Below, piece by piece: positions 2,989 through 50,761 of a stretch of 64,000 nt of DNA. The notes below the pieces were generated by a model. That model saw nothing but the letters and a program-made list of their open reading frames with translations. It did no database searches and was not told the DNA's origin. How positions within the stretch are numbered: the first letter of the stretch is position 1; each line of letters starts with the position of its first letter. Source of the stretch: Lachnospiraceae bacterium (GTDB lineage Bacteria; Bacillota; Clostridia; Lachnospirales; Lachnospiraceae); NCBI GenBank assembly GCA_022788065.1, contig JALEWG010000139.1:145-64144 (forward strand), given 5' to 3'. Position numbers and translations under genes: made by a program.

Positions 2989-4035
2989 TTAGTATTCCAC
3001 CTGCGGAGCGGCGTCGATCGAGCACTCCGTCTCCGGCGTCTTTACACGCTTTTTAAATATCATACTTCCGGCAAGACCGGCCAGTGTTCCTCCGGCTACC
3101 GCAAATACCAGCGCTAACATCACATTGACTGCCGGATTGAAGGCGAACGGTGCCAGAAGTCCCGGAATCGGAGACGCAGTTCCCGGCGCGTTGTTTACAA
3201 TGCGGAAAAACGCCGCCGCAATTCCGGAGAGACCGCCGCCAAAGAAATTGGAGCAGTAGATCGGAATCGGGTTGGAGGTAATGATGTCCGCCTGTGTTAA
3301 CGGCTCCAGCATAACTGCGATCACATTACTGCGGTCACCTAACTTCAGACGCGCGAAAATGATTCCATTGGTGAATGATCCGCCCACACAAGCGATGGCA
3401 GCAATTCCCATGGGAAGCCCGGTCAGGCCCAGCATGGCAGTGAGTGCCATGGAACTCAGCGGGGAAGTACAGATCATCTTGATAATTCCGCCTAACAGAA
3501 ATCCCATAACAATCGGCGACTGCTCGGTCGCAGCGGAGATCGTTGCACCGATGCGAACCAGCGTCGCATTTACCGCGGGATCCACAACGAACGCGATGAA
3601 GCGCGCGAACGGCGCAATCATCAGTGCGCCGCCGATAATATTCAGCCCTTCCGGCAGTTTCTTCTCAATGAACGGGGCGATCAGTCCCACCACATATCCG
3701 GCGATAAATCCCGGAAGAATTCCGTAGCCGCCGACAGCAACTCCGGCTGTCACAGCGAAAACAGGATTTGCTCCCATGGAGATCGGAACCATGATTGCGG
3801 CAGCTACACCGCCAAGACTTCCCGAAGTATCTCCGACCAGCCGGAAAAACTCCAGTCCCATCAGATCGCCGGTGATATATTTGTGCACCGCTTCCACAAG
3901 AAACGTGGCGATCGCAGCATTTGCCATCCCAGACATGGCAAGCTGTCCCTTTGGCATTTTCAGACTGAACAGTGAAAATGCCGCCAATGTTATTAACAGT
4001 AACCCGACCCCGGATACAATTGTCATCATAGCCAT
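2989..4035 (-). CDS. Polytopic membrane protein, PfoR / PTS-EIIC_2-like permease
   Basis: 348-aa Gly/Ala-rich multi-TM protein. Recognised from memory as COG3641/PfoR-type EIIC-like. No EIIA/EIIB partner is adjacent. Confidence 0.55.
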   Translation of the reverse strand: MAMMTIVSGVGLLLITLAAFSLFSLKMPKGQLAMSGMANAAIATFLVEAVHKYITGDLMGLEFFRLVGDTSGSLGGVAAAIMVPISMGANPVFAVTAGVAVGGYGILPGFIAGYVVGLIAPFIEKKLPEGLNIIGGALMIAPFARFIAFVVDPAVNATLVRIGATISAATEQSPIVMGFLLGGIIKMICTSPLSSMALTAMLGLTGLPMGIAAIACVGGSFTNGIIFARLKLGDRSNVIAVMLEPLTQADIITSNPIPIYCSNFFGGGLSGIAAAFFRIVNNAPGTASPIPGLLAPFAFNPAVNVMLALVFAVAGGTLAGLAGSMIFKKRVKTPETECSIDAAPQVEY

Positions 4036-4258
4036 TCCCTCTCTTTCCTGCTTTTCCTTCGTTACCCATTACCTTCCGGATCTAAGGTTCCCATCCTGCC
4101 GCCTGTCCGTGACGCAGAATGTCGTCCGGGAACTTATTGATTTTCTAAATAATCATCCGGTTTTATTATTGATAACCTTAATATAAATCCTACACTTCAA
4201 AAAGTAACAAACGGTATCAAAACAGACAAAGAAAAATACAGCACCATGGACATTTTTG

Positions 4259-4274
4259 TCAAAATATGACAAAA
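4259..4274 (-). promoter_or_regulatory. Direct repeat TTTTGT-CATA-TTTTGA (minus strand), candidate response-regulator operator; second half overlaps a TTGACA -35-like hexamer
   Basis: Read from sequence 4253-4275. It lies between the response-regulator stop (4333) and the permease start (4035). Confidence 0.4.
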
Positions 4275-4332
4275 TCAGTCCAATGGCACTGTACAGAATG
4301 ACGAAACCATATGGATGTTCGCTGTCACCGGC

Positions 4333-5184
4333 TCAGTGCGTCATGCAGTAGACCACGAGCGCATTCAGAAAGCTCTTTATTTTTACGTTTCCATGCTTGT
4401 CGCTCTTCCCGCGAATATAATCCATCTCTTTCCGCACCTGCTCGAAATTGTAGAGCGTGTTGGAATATTCCATGAAGATCTCATTTCCATAATCCTCGAT
4501 TCCCAAATGGGCCAGATTAACAAGGCCGGCATTCACGGTCCGCCGGATCCTCTGCTCCATGGATTTCGGGGAATCACTGAACCGGCTGCAGAGCTCATTC
4601 AACGTCGCATCGCCCACGCCCTCATGATGGGCCATCAGATACTCCGCCACCATCGCGATATCCCGGCTCCCGATATCGCCGATAATGCCCAGCTGCTGCA
4701 GAACATTCCGAAGCACGGCAGAATGCTCTCCGGCGGGATAAGCTGCCGGTTCCTGCCGGGTTTCCGGCTGCATTCCTTCCATGAAAATGTTCTGCATTTT
4801 ACTCATGGTACGCTGCATGTTCAGTGAATTTCCGACCTTTTTGATCACATTCTCCACTTCCACGCTGTTGATCGGCTTCTGGATAAAAAATTCAACCCCT
4901 GCCTCGTACGCGGAGGCAATCATTTCCTTCGAAGACACCTGTGACAGCATGATATACGCAGCCCCCGGAAGCACCTCCTTCGCCCGACGCACAAAGGCGA
5001 TTCCGTCCATTTCCGGCATCAGAAGATCCACGATCACAATGTCCGGCTTCAGCGCCGCGACATCTTCCAGACCGTCGCGCCCGTTTCCGGACGCCCCACA
5101 GACGGTTCCCAAACCGCGGTCCGTAATAATTCTCTTCAATATGTTTCGGATATTCCGGTCATCATCAATTAAATAGAATTTCAT
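4333..5184 (-). CDS. Response regulator, receiver domain + YcbB/GlnL-type C-terminal domain
   Basis: MKFYLIDDD...DIVIVDLLMPEMDG receiver motifs. The C-terminal region (EQRIRRTVNAGLVNLAHLGIEDYGNEIFMEYS...) resembles the GlnL/YcbB output domain. 4-nt overlap with the kinase gene. Confidence 0.75.
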   Translation of the reverse strand: MKFYLIDDDRNIRNILKRIITDRGLGTVCGASGNGRDGLEDVAALKPDIVIVDLLMPEMDGIAFVRRAKEVLPGAAYIMLSQVSSKEMIASAYEAGVEFFIQKPINSVEVENVIKKVGNSLNMQRTMSKMQNIFMEGMQPETRQEPAAYPAGEHSAVLRNVLQQLGIIGDIGSRDIAMVAEYLMAHHEGVGDATLNELCSRFSDSPKSMEQRIRRTVNAGLVNLAHLGIEDYGNEIFMEYSNTLYNFEQVRKEMDYIRGKSDKHGNVKIKSFLNALVVYCMTH

Positions 5185-6470
5185 CCTAGCTCCGTTTCTG
5201 CTCTTTTCTCCAGATTCTTTCTGGGAATCCGGATGATAAATGTGGTTCTGCCCGGCACAGAAGTCAGCTCGATATTTCCGTGGAGCTGATCCTCCACCAG
5301 GTCTTTTACAAGATTCAGTCCCAGCCCACGGCTGACCTCCCCTGTCGTATAATTGATCTTTGTGGAAAATCCGGGTTCAAATACTTCCTCCAGATATTCC
5401 TCCTCAATTCCGGGTCCGCAGTCCGTCACTTCAAACTGACAGACCTCTCCCGATGAAGTCTGCTCCACAAGAATGGAGACCTGTTCCCCCTCTGCCGCCT
5501 CCACCGCATTGTTGAACAGATTCCGGAAGATCGACATCAGCGCATACTGCCGGTCCGTATAAAGGCGGTCGCTGCAGCGAACTGTCATAGAAAGCTTTTT
5601 TCCGTTTTCCGCCGCCATCCGCGTCATGGATTCCTTAAGCAGTGCGAACAGCTCGGAGATCTCCATGCCGTCGCTTCGCATTTCCTGATTCAACGCCTCG
5701 GACATGCCTTTTAAAATCAGCAGATACTCCTTCTTGATCTCATGGACGTCTCTGGCCACGGAAAGCGCGGAAGTCACATATTTCGGGTCTGTACCAGCTT
5801 TCCCCAGTTCTTCATAAAGCCGGTATGCAGTGCTCATCGTTTCTTCGATCAGCGCCGTATTTTTCCGCATCCAGACTATTTCCCCGTCAAGCTTTGAAAC
5901 CAGAACGAGAAGACGCCGGTACCGGTCCTCATGCTCCTGCTTTAAAAGAAGAAAGCGGTACCGGTCAAAGCCGGTCAGGACCGCGCCGATGACAAACGTT
6001 CTGAGACAGGCGATCAGGAAAATACCGCTCTGGGTCTTCCATGTGAAGGAAGCCGCCTGCATACGGAGAAGCAGCTCCGCAGCGTTCGCCGCATAGTCGA
6101 TCAGAACCATCGGCAGCGCGGCCAGCGGGCTGAAGGTATCTTTCTTTTTAAGAAACACCGTGTACAGCCGCAGCAACAGTCCGTAGCAGATATAGAAACC
6201 GGTTTCCGGAAACGCGGAGACAATGCTTGCCTGCCAGGTTCCGGTCTGCAGCCGGTACATACACGCCCTCAGCGCAAAAACGCCGAACGCCGAGCAGAAT
6301 GTGACCGGAATCAGCGGAAACGCGTCAGTCAGAAAATAAAAGAGCGGAATGAAAACGACAGCGATCGAGATCTTAAAGTCCGCAATAAAAAGGTTCATGC
6401 TGAGCTGAGCCGCCAGTATGACCACCGCGCTGTAGCATATGATCTTTTCCAGGTTCTTTCTGTCCTTCAT
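5181..6470 (-). CDS. Sensor histidine kinase, multi-TM N-terminus, GlnK/YcbA-like
   Basis: 429 aa. About 5-6 N-terminal TM helices, then HATPase_c motifs (NLFNNAVEA, DCGPGI, GLGLNLV). ATGA overlap with the downstream regulator. Confidence 0.75.
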   Translation of the reverse strand: MKDRKNLEKIICYSAVVILAAQLSMNLFIADFKISIAVVFIPLFYFLTDAFPLIPVTFCSAFGVFALRACMYRLQTGTWQASIVSAFPETGFYICYGLLLRLYTVFLKKKDTFSPLAALPMVLIDYAANAAELLLRMQAASFTWKTQSGIFLIACLRTFVIGAVLTGFDRYRFLLLKQEHEDRYRRLLVLVSKLDGEIVWMRKNTALIEETMSTAYRLYEELGKAGTDPKYVTSALSVARDVHEIKKEYLLILKGMSEALNQEMRSDGMEISELFALLKESMTRMAAENGKKLSMTVRCSDRLYTDRQYALMSIFRNLFNNAVEAAEGEQVSILVEQTSSGEVCQFEVTDCGPGIEEEYLEEVFEPGFSTKINYTTGEVSRGLGLNLVKDLVEDQLHGNIELTSVPGRTTFIIRIPRKNLEKRAETELG

Positions 6471-6512: not shown

Positions 6513-7241
6513 CTACTCTCCGCTTTCCCTCCCATATGTTTCCACGCAGAAGCCTTTGTGTCCGCATTGCGTGCAGGTCAGTTTTCTCGCAGTGGACGTA
6601 TGTCTGGCCCAGAAGACATCCCTGATTTTCGGCCGGAATACCGTATGGCATTTAGGGCAGATATAGGCGGTGTTATCATAATAATACCGGAAGAGCCACA
6701 CGGTGAGCGCGATCACGACCGCCATCCCCACTGCAAACGGCCACCAGATTCCCTCTGTGATCCCGAGGATCAGAGTCCCGATTTCAACGAGATCCATGAC
6801 AACTCCGACGCCGAGCATAATGCCCCGCACTTTGTAAAGCTTCTTTTTATTCTCCATGTAATAGGCCATATCACCGATAGATTCAACGGAAAAATGCTCC
6901 ACACGTTTCAGCTGCCGTTTCAGTTCCTCCACGGAATCCAGCATCGTCTGGCGCTCCCCGATCTCATTTCGCAGGACCTGCTCCTGCTGATCCAGAAGAA
7001 GCAAAATCACCTCGCCGGGATTTTCTTCCGTGAAAAGCTCACCAATGCCGTTGATGGACAATCCGATGTTCCGGAGAAAGCAGATAATTTTTAATTTCTG
7101 CAGATCCTCCTCCGAGTAAAGCCGCCTTCCGCCCTCACTGAGCTCACTGGGAACCAGGATATTCCTGGAATCATAATACTGCACGGTCCGCACCGACACG
7201 CCGCACTGCTTCGCCATTTCTCCTGTCGTGTATTTTGACAT
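6513..7241 (-). CDS. MerR-family regulator fused to two TM helices and a C-terminal zinc-ribbon (CPKC...CTQC)
   Basis: N-terminus YTTGEMAKQCGVSVRTVQYYDSRNIL is a MerR HTH, followed by a coiled coil. Then hydrophobic segments GIMLGVGVVMDLVEIGTLILGI and WWPFAVGMAVVIALTVWLF, then CPKC-x-CTQC. Confidence 0.8.
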   Translation of the reverse strand: MSKYTTGEMAKQCGVSVRTVQYYDSRNILVPSELSEGGRRLYSEEDLQKLKIICFLRNIGLSINGIGELFTEENPGEVILLLLDQQEQVLRNEIGERQTMLDSVEELKRQLKRVEHFSVESIGDMAYYMENKKKLYKVRGIMLGVGVVMDLVEIGTLILGITEGIWWPFAVGMAVVIALTVWLFRYYYDNTAYICPKCHTVFRPKIRDVFWARHTSTARKLTCTQCGHKGFCVETYGRESGE

Positions 7242-48235: not shown

Positions 48236-49153
48236 TCAGGTCTCTGCCGCAAACATATGCAGATTCAGAGTCTTTGAAAGGTATTCCAGCATCCGGCAGC
48301 CGGCAATACTGTTTCCCTTTGCATCCAGGGCCGGTCCGTAAATTCCGATCCCCATCCGTTTTTCGGCAACGGCCAGTATGCCGCCGCCGACACCGCTCTT
48401 TGACGGGATTCCCACGCGGACCGCAAATTCTCCCGATCCGTCGTACATACCACAGGTCAGCATAATGGTCTTGACGATCCGCACTGCCTCTGCGTCCACC
48501 AGTCGGACTCCGGTCTCCGGATGTCTTCCGCCGGTAGCCAGGACAATTCCGAGTCCGGCGAGGCTTTCCGCCGTCACACTGAGGGAACACATCCGGATAT
48601 AGAGATCCAGACTCTTCTCCACGTCACTCTCCAGAATTCCCTTACTCTGGAGCAGATAGGCGATGGCACGGTTTCTCGCGCAGTTGGCCATCTCGGACTC
48701 GTAGACCTTCTGGTCCATGACGATCCCGTCGTCCATGCACACCTTTCGCGCGTACTTTAACATGTCATCAAAGCTCACTTCCGACACCAGATATCCTGCC
48801 GTCGTGATAGCCCCCGCGTTGATCATCGGGTTAAACGGCTTGTCGCTGGCCATGTCCAACTTGAGAAGAGAATTGAAGGCATCCCCGGACGGCTCCATAT
48901 TCATCTTCTCGAAAACCCGGTCAAATCCACAGTGCTGTAAAGCGATCACCAGTGAAATGACCTTGGAAATACTCTGGATCGTGAACCGCGTCTTCGTGTC
49001 CCCGGCCGCATAGCGGTCCATGGACCTGGTGATCACACACACGCCCAGACTGTTTTTGTCAGCCCTCGCAAGCTCCGGAATATAAGACGCACACTCCCCC
49101 TGTGCGATATAGCGTCTTCCGATTGCAAGAGCCTCTTCCAATACGTTTTGCAT
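48236..49153 (-). CDS. glsA: Glutaminase A
   Basis: YIPELA..., FTIQSISKV (Ser-x-x-Lys), NPMINAGAI and PSKSGVGGGI motifs. ATG at 49153 is preferred for RBS spacing (GAAGGA-6 nt). Confidence 0.9.
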   Translation of the reverse strand: MQNVLEEALAIGRRYIAQGECASYIPELARADKNSLGVCVITRSMDRYAAGDTKTRFTIQSISKVISLVIALQHCGFDRVFEKMNMEPSGDAFNSLLKLDMASDKPFNPMINAGAITTAGYLVSEVSFDDMLKYARKVCMDDGIVMDQKVYESEMANCARNRAIAYLLQSKGILESDVEKSLDLYIRMCSLSVTAESLAGLGIVLATGGRHPETGVRLVDAEAVRIVKTIMLTCGMYDGSGEFAVRVGIPSKSGVGGGILAVAEKRMGIGIYGPALDAKGNSIAGCRMLEYLSKTLNLHMFAAET

Positions 49154-49171
49154 CCCCATTCCTTCTTTCAG

Positions 49172-50761
49172 TTACTGCAGGAAGATAACTCCTCCCGGTC
49201 CCAGCGGAAGATTCAGGAAATACCAGATAGCCAGCTGTATGATCCAGATAACCGCAAAGGATACGGAGAACGGGATCATATTGGCAATGAGGGTACCGAT
49301 ACCCACATTTTTATCATACTTGCGCGCAAAGCTTAAAGCGATCGGCAGATATGCGTTTAACGGAGTCAGCGGATTCGTCAGAGAATCGCCGATCCGGTAT
49401 ACAACCTGAATGAACGCCGGATTGTATCCGAGAAGCATTAACATCGGCACGAAAATCGGAGCAAGGATCGCCCATTTTGCAGATGTGGAACCGATCAGCA
49501 GGTTGATCAGGCATGTCAGCACAATAATTCCCAGAACCAGCAGCATGCCGGTAAGTCCCACGTTGCTTAAGAACTCCGCTCCTTTAATCGCGATGATGGT
49601 TCCTATTTTAGACACTGAGAAGAAATTTGTAAAGATGGAAATAAAGAAGCACATGAACACATAGCTTCCCATCTCCGCAAAGCCCTGGCTGATGTCAGCC
49701 CATACATCTTTATCTTTTTTATATTTTCCGGTTCCGATACCATAAAAGAGACCCGGAACGAAAAGGAACAGTGTCACAGTAAATACGATACCTTTGGAGA
49801 ACGGGGAAGCACTGGCTGTAATGGAGCCGTTCTCATCTGCCAGGATCGCCGTCGGCCCGAAGATCGGAAGGGAGAGAAGGAGGACTGCGATCAAAAGAAG
49901 CAGTGTCGCAATACCTGCCATTTTAAGACCCTTGTTTTCCTCCGGAGACAGTTTTTTTCTTTCCTCGCCAAAGTTGAATTTGGCAAGTTCCTCCTTGGAA
50001 ATCGGGAAACGCGGAACCAGTATTTTTCCACCAGAATCGTGCCTGTGATCGTGAGCACGACACAGGATACCATCAGGAAATACCAGTTGATCGCGATGGA
50101 TTCCGAATAAGTCGGGTCGATCATCTGCGCTGCAGGCTCAGTGAAGCCGTATGCCAGCGCATCGGAAAGTCCAAGGATCAATGTTGGCACAGAAGCCGGC
50201 GGAAACCGACGCAAAAGCCGTGTAGAGGCCGAGCAGCGGGTGACGACCGACGGACATGAACAGTACGGCGGCCAGCGGCGGCAGAACAATGTTTCCGGCG
50301 TCTCCGGCCACATTCAGGTTAATTCCAAGGAATACAACCACGCAGGTAACGATCCAGCCCTTGGCTCCGCCGAGGAATTTTTCCATGACGGCTACCAGGA
50401 ATCCGCTCTTTTCCGCAAGGGAGGAGCCGACAACCGCTACCAGAACCATGCCGAGAGGCGCAAAGCCTGAGAAATTGGTGATGACATTGGTCCACAGGTA
50501 TTTGATACCTGCAACGGAGAGAAGGTTAAATACCTGAACGGTGGAACCGTCCGACGGATTGACAGCCGTTACGCCCAGCATGCTGAACACAGCTGAAAGA
50601 ACGATAACGATAACTGCCAGTCCCAGGAACATAGTGATCGGATCCGGGAGTTTATTTCCCATACGCTCGATGGCGTCGAGGAACCGGTCCAGTCCGCTTT
50701 TCTTTACTTTTACAGCTTCATTTTCTTTTTGCTCATACGATCGCCCTTTCTTTTCTGTCAC
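49172..50761 (-). pseudogene. abgT: AbgT-family (p-aminobenzoyl-glutamate-type) transporter split over three ORFs by two frameshifts
   Basis: ORFs 50138..50761 and 49172..49921 share a frame. The homologous sequence detours through the frame of ORF 49891..50313 between about 50182 and about 50025. Confidence 0.75.

Follow-up and report, generated by a model that had tools for sequence, protein, structure and literature searches.

YcbB-type response regulators have, to our knowledge, been studied in essentially one system, the GlnK-GlnL (YcbA-YcbB) pair of Bacillus subtilis, which reportedly controls the glsA-glnT operon with GlnL acting as an activator. The second protein family that concerns us here, PF13303 ("PTS_EIIC_2", PfoR-like), comprises orphan membrane proteins with the EIIC fold, for which we know of no established substrate; its founding member, PfoR of Clostridium perfringens, was named as a regulator of perfringolysin O. 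Both families are encoded side by side in a stretch of 64,000 nucleotides from a Lachnospiraceae bacterium (GCA_022788065.1, contig JALEWG010000139.1, positions 145 to 64,144; hereafter the window), where a sensor kinase gene and a YcbB-type regulator gene are followed on the minus strand by the gene of a PF13303 permease (Table 1). An original prediction, made from the letters of the window, read the locus as a GlnK-GlnL-type circuit rewired to a permease for an amino acid or amide. The comparative analysis reported here points to a different circuit, in which a GlnK/GlnL-type module probably activates an EIIC-fold glycine uptake permease in response to glycine; the regulatory part of this reading we hold to be very probable.

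In the proposed mechanism, the GlnK-type kinase would sense an amino-acid signal, most likely glycine, and autophosphorylate on His243, from which the phosphate would pass to Asp53 of the GlnL/YcbB-type regulator. The phosphorylated regulator would then bind head to tail on three 10-bp repeats occupying the -35 region (4222-4193) and activate a promoter with a -10 box (TATATT, 4185-4180) but no -35 hexamer, giving a monocistronic permease mRNA with a leader of ~140 nt. The permease would most likely import glycine for the selenoprotein glycine reductase, and a grdC-grdD-selA-selB segment of that system is found on another contig of the same genome.

The two-component system and its relation to GlnK-GlnL

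The start of the regulator gene overlaps the stop of the kinase gene by 4 nt, and 297 bp separate the regulator gene from the permease gene; the genes and the repeat motif discussed below lie where the original prediction had placed them. Its family assignments were borne out by profile searches as well, the regulator matching Response_reg (E = 9.7e-21) and YcbB (PF08664; E = 3.5e-33, 115 bits with a cut-off of 27.4; output domain at approximately residues 154-282) and the permease matching PTS_EIIC_2 (PF13303; E = 1.6e-62, 212 bits with a cut-off of 28.9). In the kinase only HATPase_c was matched in Pfam (E = 6.8e-21, residues 310-418), and no Pfam or NCBIfam model matched its polytopic N-terminus (approximately residues 10-180). 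As judged from sequence, the phosphorelay residues are intact: the H-box of the kinase reads ARDVH243EIKKEY, and D8, D9, D53 and K103 in the acidic pocket of the receiver are invariant across 29 aligned regulators. The AlphaFold model of the regulator has a predicted local distance difference test (pLDDT) score of 88.7. For the YcbB output domain, the sequence search found no solved relative, and the fold search with the regulator model was dominated by the receiver and returned nothing for the output domain.

The pair is of the GlnK/GlnL (YcbA/YcbB) type, as had been predicted. When compared with the Bacillus pair encoded divergently from glsA, the alignment of the kinase runs from end to end (residues 17-424; 26% identity, E = 9e-31) and places H243 of DVHEIKKEY opposite the EMHEVKKD of the Bacillus kinase, and the regulator aligns through the YcbB domain (33% identity, E = 6e-46). 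In six genomes of one Bacillus family, the glutaminase gene is divergent from the kinase/YcbB-regulator pair and is followed by the gene of an APC amino-acid permease. The DNA upstream of glsA reads TTTTGTAGGT TTT[TC]GTA[AT]GA TTATGTAGTT, then 7 nt and TAAAAT, in agreement with the TTTTGT-N4-TTTTGT architecture that the original prediction had given for the GlnL site, the exact form being present in two of the six genomes. The Bacillus glsA promoters and the window promoter have a common geometry, in which three TTTTGN units of 10 bp are followed after 7 nt by a -10 box. By its sequence and its operator architecture, the window system is a member of the GlnK/GlnL family.

The likeness to B. 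subtilis GlnK-GlnL extends to the regulator architecture (receiver plus YcbB), to the polytopic kinase type and, as proposed here, to a neighbouring target with an amino-acid uptake function. The differences are equally clear. The neighbour of the window regulator is an EIIC-fold permease and not a glutaminase with an AGCS or APC carrier; the consensus of the window units is TTTTGAAACY and not TTTTGTAGNT; the genes stand in tandem with an intervening terminator and are not divergent; the comparative signal points to glycine and not to glutamine; and the identity amounts to only 26-33%. No glutaminase is linked to the module in any locus examined. The glutaminase gene of the window itself (PF04960, E = 6.9e-112) lies behind the genes of an M20 peptidase and an AbgT transporter and adjoins no two-component system, in line with the earlier remark that glsA sits 44 kb away in another operon. 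The AbgT-family gene, between the M20 peptidase gene and glsA, consists of two open reading frames (ORFs) with ~87 profile positions absent between them, which may reflect a frameshift, pseudogenisation or a mistake in the assembly.

Members of the YcbB family appear to differ in specificity, because a second YcbB two-component system in the same genome, split between the end of contig C118 and the start of contig C189 (loci L001 and L003), is paired with a GltS sodium/glutamate symporter, whose gene follows 97 bp later. The sequence upstream of gltS reads CTCTGTCTTT TTTTGAATTT TTTTGAAGGG, then 7 nt and TACAGT, that is, tandem TTTTTGA repeats in the same layout as in the window promoter. Among 20 sampled Bacillales loci, 17 have an SDF-family (GltP/GltT-like) symporter gene following the YcbB system (L200-L217), and one YcbB system of this sample is divergent from a polar amino-acid ABC transporter. 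Taken together, these SDF, ABC, GltS and glutaminase plus APC neighbours indicate that the YcbB family pairs with amino-acid carriers of several unrelated folds. In a Lederbergia locus (L167:7440-7560), TGTCGGATTT occurs twice in the gap.

Conservation of the module and its connection to glycine

With the permease as query, 80 orthologous loci (65-86% identity across Clostridia) were collected. Kinase and YcbB regulator genes are present in 56 of them, distributed over Lachnospiraceae, Clostridiaceae and Oscillospiraceae, and are missing from the other 24. This synteny, together with an operator-like array that tracks the permease gene (see below), upholds the permease as the likely target of the regulator. 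It leaves no room for the proposed rewiring at this particular locus, since the module recurs in 56 of 80 loci across three families. In a protein-homologue search toward B. subtilis GlnL, the 120 closest matches listed were all Clostridial.

The evidence for glycine comes from three directions. The first is an RNA sensor. In seven of the 24 loci without linked two-component genes, the permease gene is immediately preceded on the same strand by one or two glycine-riboswitch aptamers (RF00504; 38-63 bits with a gathering score of 32). Glycine riboswitches are glycine-specific and commonly precede glycine carriers. Inspected by eye, the terminator that follows the aptamer seems to share its 5' arm with the closing helix of the aptamer, as would be expected of an ON-type gcvT switch. 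The permease orthologues in these seven loci are direct targets within the glycine-riboswitch regulon, which otherwise includes the gcvT operon and glycine/alanine carriers, whereas in the window and most relatives the RNA sensor is replaced by a protein two-component system. The riboswitch loci fall among the two-component loci in a maximum-likelihood tree of 81 permease orthologues, in which well-supported branches require the regulator type to have changed at least four times; this suggests that the same protein has repeatedly swapped an RNA glycine sensor for a protein sensor, or the reverse.

The second direction is the glycine reductase operon. On contig L225, which carries locus L117, a permease orthologue is the last gene of a cluster that reads AGCS-grdE-grdB(Sec)-trxB-trxA-grdA(Sec)-grdC-grdD-EIIC_2, where Sec denotes selenocysteine, and the two-component-type module of Hespellia (L110) is followed after 1.1 kb by grdE-B-A in convergent orientation. 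The third is phyletic co-occurrence, for which 200 genomes of the same family, one per genus, were sampled; seven of these have the permease and 19 have GrdA. GrdA is present in all seven genomes with the permease and in 12 of the 193 without it (hypergeometric ~2e-8, with neither counts nor probability corrected for phylogeny). It is also present in all five sampled two-component-type genomes, which come from three families, and GrdA or GcvT is present in four of five riboswitch-type genomes. As to the bacterium itself, its contig C180 (2-5743) opens within grdC, after which grdD, selA and selB follow, which indicates that the glycine reductase system is present and cut by an assembly gap. 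In the literature searched, we came across no paper that connects PF13303 proteins with glycine riboswitches or with glycine reductase, and a prior description elsewhere is possible.

The earlier hint at an amino acid or amide as substrate stands with respect to the amino-acid class, now narrowed to glycine, and finds no support with respect to the glutamine analogy in view of the riboswitch and grd evidence. From these comparisons we lean towards glycine being both the signal and the substrate. The regulation could, however, be as proposed and the cargo a different one that is needed while glycine reductase runs; sarcosine or betaine, glycine-containing peptides, an exported product or selenium would be candidates. 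Riboswitch and grd-operon membership show co-regulation and not substrate, and glycine-dependent expression does not prove glycine transport. The grd cluster on L225 has its own Na+/alanine-glycine symporter, so that its EIIC-fold protein could carry another compound; two such symporters are found in the genome studied here, and a choloylglycine hydrolase gene occurs near the permease gene in one of the loci (L144). What speaks against a different cargo, besides the glycine specificity of the riboswitches, is that in the GlnK-GlnL paradigm and in the other YcbB systems examined the neighbouring transporters belong to amino-acid carrier families, suggesting that the cargo is the sensed amino acid itself, and we consider a compound other than glycine rather unlikely.

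The ambiguity of cargo weighs against glycine uptake under GlnK/GlnL-type activation, and several further points do so as well. No glycine riboswitch was found in the window region or in the genome to which it belongs. GrdA, GrdB, GrdE and GcvT were not found in the same assembly, which is 89% complete (profile search for GrdA), a negative result that the assembly gap at grdC explains in the case of GrdA. The co-occurrence figures carry the phylogenetic dependence mentioned above. We know of no EIIC-fold amino-acid carrier, and the permease may be coupled in trans to the phosphotransferase system (PTS), as HPr and Enzyme I are encoded in the genome (three copies of HPr, two of the Enzyme I N-domain). 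Finally, repeats overlapping the -35 region also fit a repressor.

A clade of six loci without kinase and regulator (L124, L144, L150, L152, L153 and L159, which form a single clade of the permease tree and come from Mogibacterium, uncultured Clostridia and a Synergistaceae bin) offers a further clue to how the module may work. Directly upstream of the permease gene, this clade has an ORF of ~250 aa whose product is homologous to the kinase sensor domain (E = 1e-16 and 7e-19) and lacks a kinase part. It has no H-box histidine, and no Pfam or NCBIfam model matched it. The position of this homologue beside the permease hints that sensor domain and permease act together. That the two form a physical pair for transport-coupled glycine sensing is a tentative idea, which we regard as doubtful. 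The choloylglycine (bile-salt) hydrolase gene of L144, whose product frees glycine from bile-acid conjugates, is located 1.4 kb upstream of the sensor-like ORF and the permease gene there. In L150 and L152, the sensor-like ORF is preceded by a partial look-alike of a MerR-type protein (~2646-2960), and none is seen in the loci that carry the two-component system. In the window, a gene for a membrane-anchored MerR-type protein ends 42 nt upstream of the kinase gene; it was considered as a member of the module and rejected, as it is not kept upstream of the kinase in relatives.

Probable operator array, promoter and leader

The array of three tandem 10-bp units at 4222-4193, which is the probable operator of the regulator, sits 37 bp downstream of the TTTTGT-CATA-TTTTGA motif singled out by the original prediction and spans approximately -49 to -20 of the permease promoter. 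The -10 box TATATT is kept at a fixed distance of 7 nt from the array in most Lachnospiraceae orthologues. No -35 consensus is present in the permease promoter, where GTTACT occupies the 17-bp position, and none is recognisable in relatives either. The array pattern has a single match in the window, with 0 expected. When at least two units with up to 2 mismatches to TTTGAAAC at a 10-bp period were required, arrays were found in 35 of the 56 loci with the two-component system and in 0 of the 24 without it. A position weight matrix of 45 nt, covering array, spacer and -10 box, gave linked loci a median score of 39.5 bits and unlinked loci a maximum of -4.5 bits, and ~20 linked loci left out of matrix building still outscore every unlinked locus. 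Across the genome (2.39 Mb, both strands), the matrix identified one site, with 44.4 bits, and nothing else reaches 12; because the array is the only such site in the genome, the regulon is probably this one gene. In two Sellimonas loci (L115 and L116), where the two-component genes are found downstream and on the opposite strand, the array is still upstream of the permease gene, from which it follows that the array belongs to the permease promoter.

Direct repeats with a period of one helical turn over the -35 region of a -10-only promoter are also a feature of the pho boxes of PhoB/PhoP, from which the window system differs in having a YcbB output domain instead of a winged helix. An array that overlaps the -35 position, where a bound protein can block RNA polymerase, would equally suit a regulator that represses the permease promoter until the signal arrives, but the lack of a recognisable -35 hexamer in the window and in relatives is typical of activator-dependent promoters, the B. 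subtilis homologue reportedly activates glsA-glnT, and repression strikes us as distinctly unlikely.

Transcription is predicted to start near 4173. The distance from the site to the start codon is 142 nt, compared with 30-58 nt in most relatives. The leader contains an insert of ~85 nt (roughly 4045-4125), which is absent from relatives (leaders of ~55 nt), is richer in G+C and holds a GTTCCC...GGGAAC stem; a mobile repeat was considered for it and rejected, the insert being unique in the genome. At E<=1, no Rfam match was found in the permease leader, the second PF13303 locus described below or the gltS leader.

The flagged motif and the probable terminator hairpin

The motif flagged in the original prediction, TTTTGTCATATTTTGA, is located on the minus strand 224 nt upstream of the permease ATG. 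It is the single match to TTTTGW-N4-TTTTGW in 64 kb, where 0.02 are expected and where 2 of 100 shuffles have at least one match. It had been read as a direct-repeat operator of the regulator, with its second half overlapping a TTGACA hexamer. A closer inspection shows that the motif forms the apex of a long hairpin that begins 38 nt past the regulator stop codon, has a folding energy of -30.5 kcal/mol by RNAfold (z -6.45; 0 of 200 shuffles fold as well) and is followed by a U-run. A hairpin with a T-run is present at the equivalent place in ~20 orthologous loci, with quite different lower-stem sequences, and among 16 aligned orthologous hairpins, 8 of the 13 consensus pairs have changed in a compensatory manner. 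No hairpin is present in L006, L089, L092 and L107-L109, where the regulator gene ends ~30 nt before the promoter. The hairpin (4294-4236) is a probable intrinsic terminator closing the kinase-regulator operon.

What the 16 aligned orthologues retain is the inverted form and not the second direct half-site (TTTTGA at +10); the TTTGT...ACAA core is identical in all 16, within a variable flanking stem. The motif can consequently no longer be regarded as a conserved direct-repeat operator. The overlapping TTGACA is not conserved in relatives, and the TTGACA-18-TATTTT arrangement inside the hairpin, considered as a promoter, was rejected for that reason and is treated as chance. The invariance of the TTTGT...ACAA core at the apex suggests a constraint beyond RNA pairing. 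Because its halves resemble the operator unit, the apex palindrome TTTGT-N-ACAA may be a second, inverted binding site of the regulator.

These results bear directly on the circuit that the original prediction had put forward, that is, a glutamine-responsive GlnK-GlnL system rewired in this bacterium to an orphan glutamine/amide permease, with the regulator bound at the 4274-4259 repeat. Membership of the two-component system in the GlnK/GlnL family, the statistical rarity of TTTTGT-CATA-TTTTGA in the window and the match of its TTTTGT half-site to units upstream of Bacillus glsA would all favour such a circuit. However, the repeat is the apex of a conserved terminator hairpin and its direct-repeat form is not shared by orthologues, a better array downstream of it, beside the -10 box, is conserved, and the spread of the module over three families is not that of a local rewiring. 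In addition, the links in the loci examined are to glycine riboswitches and glycine reductase and not to a glutaminase, and the pairing of the second YcbB system with GltS shows that specificity varies within the family. A glutamine circuit of this kind is thus very unlikely in our estimation, and glycine-responsive activation through the downstream array is preferred.

Permease family, fold and the question of PTS coupling

A sequence search found no solved structure for the permease. The AlphaFold2 model built from 45 orthologues has a pLDDT of 88.7 and a predicted template-modelling (pTM) score of 0.83, and its sole significant fold matches in the PDB are glucose-family PTS EIIC proteins (8qsr, template-modelling [TM] score = 0.55; 9lgt, TM score = 0.53; Foldseek probability 1.00), with which it has 13-15% identity. 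The predicted fold is thus common to the permease and the glucose-superfamily EIIC proteins represented by E. coli PtsG IICB (8qsr) and V. cholerae IIC (9lgt). The window permease differs from these in being shorter (348 aa), in having no fused or adjacent EIIB or EIIA, and in a genomic context of amino-acid (glycine) metabolism and not of sugar catabolism. No EIIA or EIIB gene was found in the window or in the neighbours scanned (L119, L144, L150 and L225), the 80 loci not having been scanned systematically.

The reading as an ordinary sugar PTS EIIC that uses EIIA and EIIB from elsewhere, with a two-component system sensing a carbohydrate, accords with the Pfam family, the fold and the HPr and Enzyme I genes of the genome, but is most improbable given the lack of adjacent EIIA/EIIB in the window and the loci inspected by Pfam, the occurrence of orthologues downstream of glycine riboswitches and as part of a glycine reductase operon, the tracking of GrdA by the permease and the links of YcbB-type systems to amino-acid carriers elsewhere.

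With PfoR, the window permease has in common the family PF13303 and the nature of a polytopic membrane protein without PTS partners. Differences are suggested by the predicted transporter fold and the transporter-like setting of the window permease, near which no toxin gene is found, and it represents a divergent PF13303 subfamily, scoring 212 bits compared with 314 bits for the other PF13303 gene of the genome. This second gene (contig C48, locus L004) has no adjoining two-component system within its short locus.

Table 1. Positions of the features discussed; those without a prefix refer to the window.
Feature	Position	Strand	Size and remarks
GlnK (YcbA)-type sensor histidine kinase	5181-6470	minus	429 aa
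Response regulator, receiver plus YcbB/GlnL-type all-helical output domain	4333-5184	minus	283 aa
EIIC-fold permease, PF13303	2989-4035	minus	348 aa; monocistronic target gene (proposed)
Probable operator, three tandem 10-bp units	4222-4213, 4212-4203, 4202-4193	minus	TTTTGATACC, GTTTGTTACT, TTTTGAAGTG
-10 box TATATT	4185-4180	minus	7-nt spacer TAGGATT (4192-4186) after the last unit
Permease 5' leader	4036-4179	minus	~140 nt; ribosome-binding site AGAGGGA at 4042-4036
Flagged motif TTTTGT-CATA-TTTTGA	4274-4259	minus
Apex palindrome TTTTGTCA-TATTT-TGACAAAA	4254-4274	minus	21 nt, perfect 8-bp inverted repeat; contains TTTTGT-CATA-TTTTGA
Long hairpin, probable intrinsic terminator of the kinase-regulator operon	4236-4294	minus	59 nt; U-run tail AUUUUUCUUU at 4235-4226
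Membrane-anchored MerR-type gene	6513-7241	minus
Glutaminase gene (glsA)	48236-49159
AbgT-family gene	49172-50761	minus	two ORFs, 49172-49921 and 50138-50761
Sensor-like ORF	L124:3259-3999
Sensor-like ORF	L144:3229-3996
Sensor-like ORF	L150:3227-3973
Sensor-like ORF	L152:3226-3972
Sensor-like ORF	L159:3227-3973
Choloylglycine hydrolase gene	L144:1566-2564
Second PF13303 gene	C48:15586-16530		314 bits

Significance

The way in which gut Clostridia ferment amino acids is shaped by glycine reductase (Stickland) metabolism. Three independent comparative signals, namely the riboswitch, the grd operon and phyletic co-occurrence, give one clade of PF13303 a concrete and testable substrate; they also suggest the signal of a widespread Clostridial two-component system, for which the promoter architecture defines the likely operator. 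If glycine uptake by the permease is true, a dedicated and separately sensed glycine carrier of unexpected fold would be added to the glycine reductase pathway, and the EIIC fold would be used outside sugar transport. Should the more tentative pairing of sensor domain and permease also be true, the permease would be the first EIIC-fold amino-acid carrier and at the same time a co-sensor of a GlnK-type kinase.

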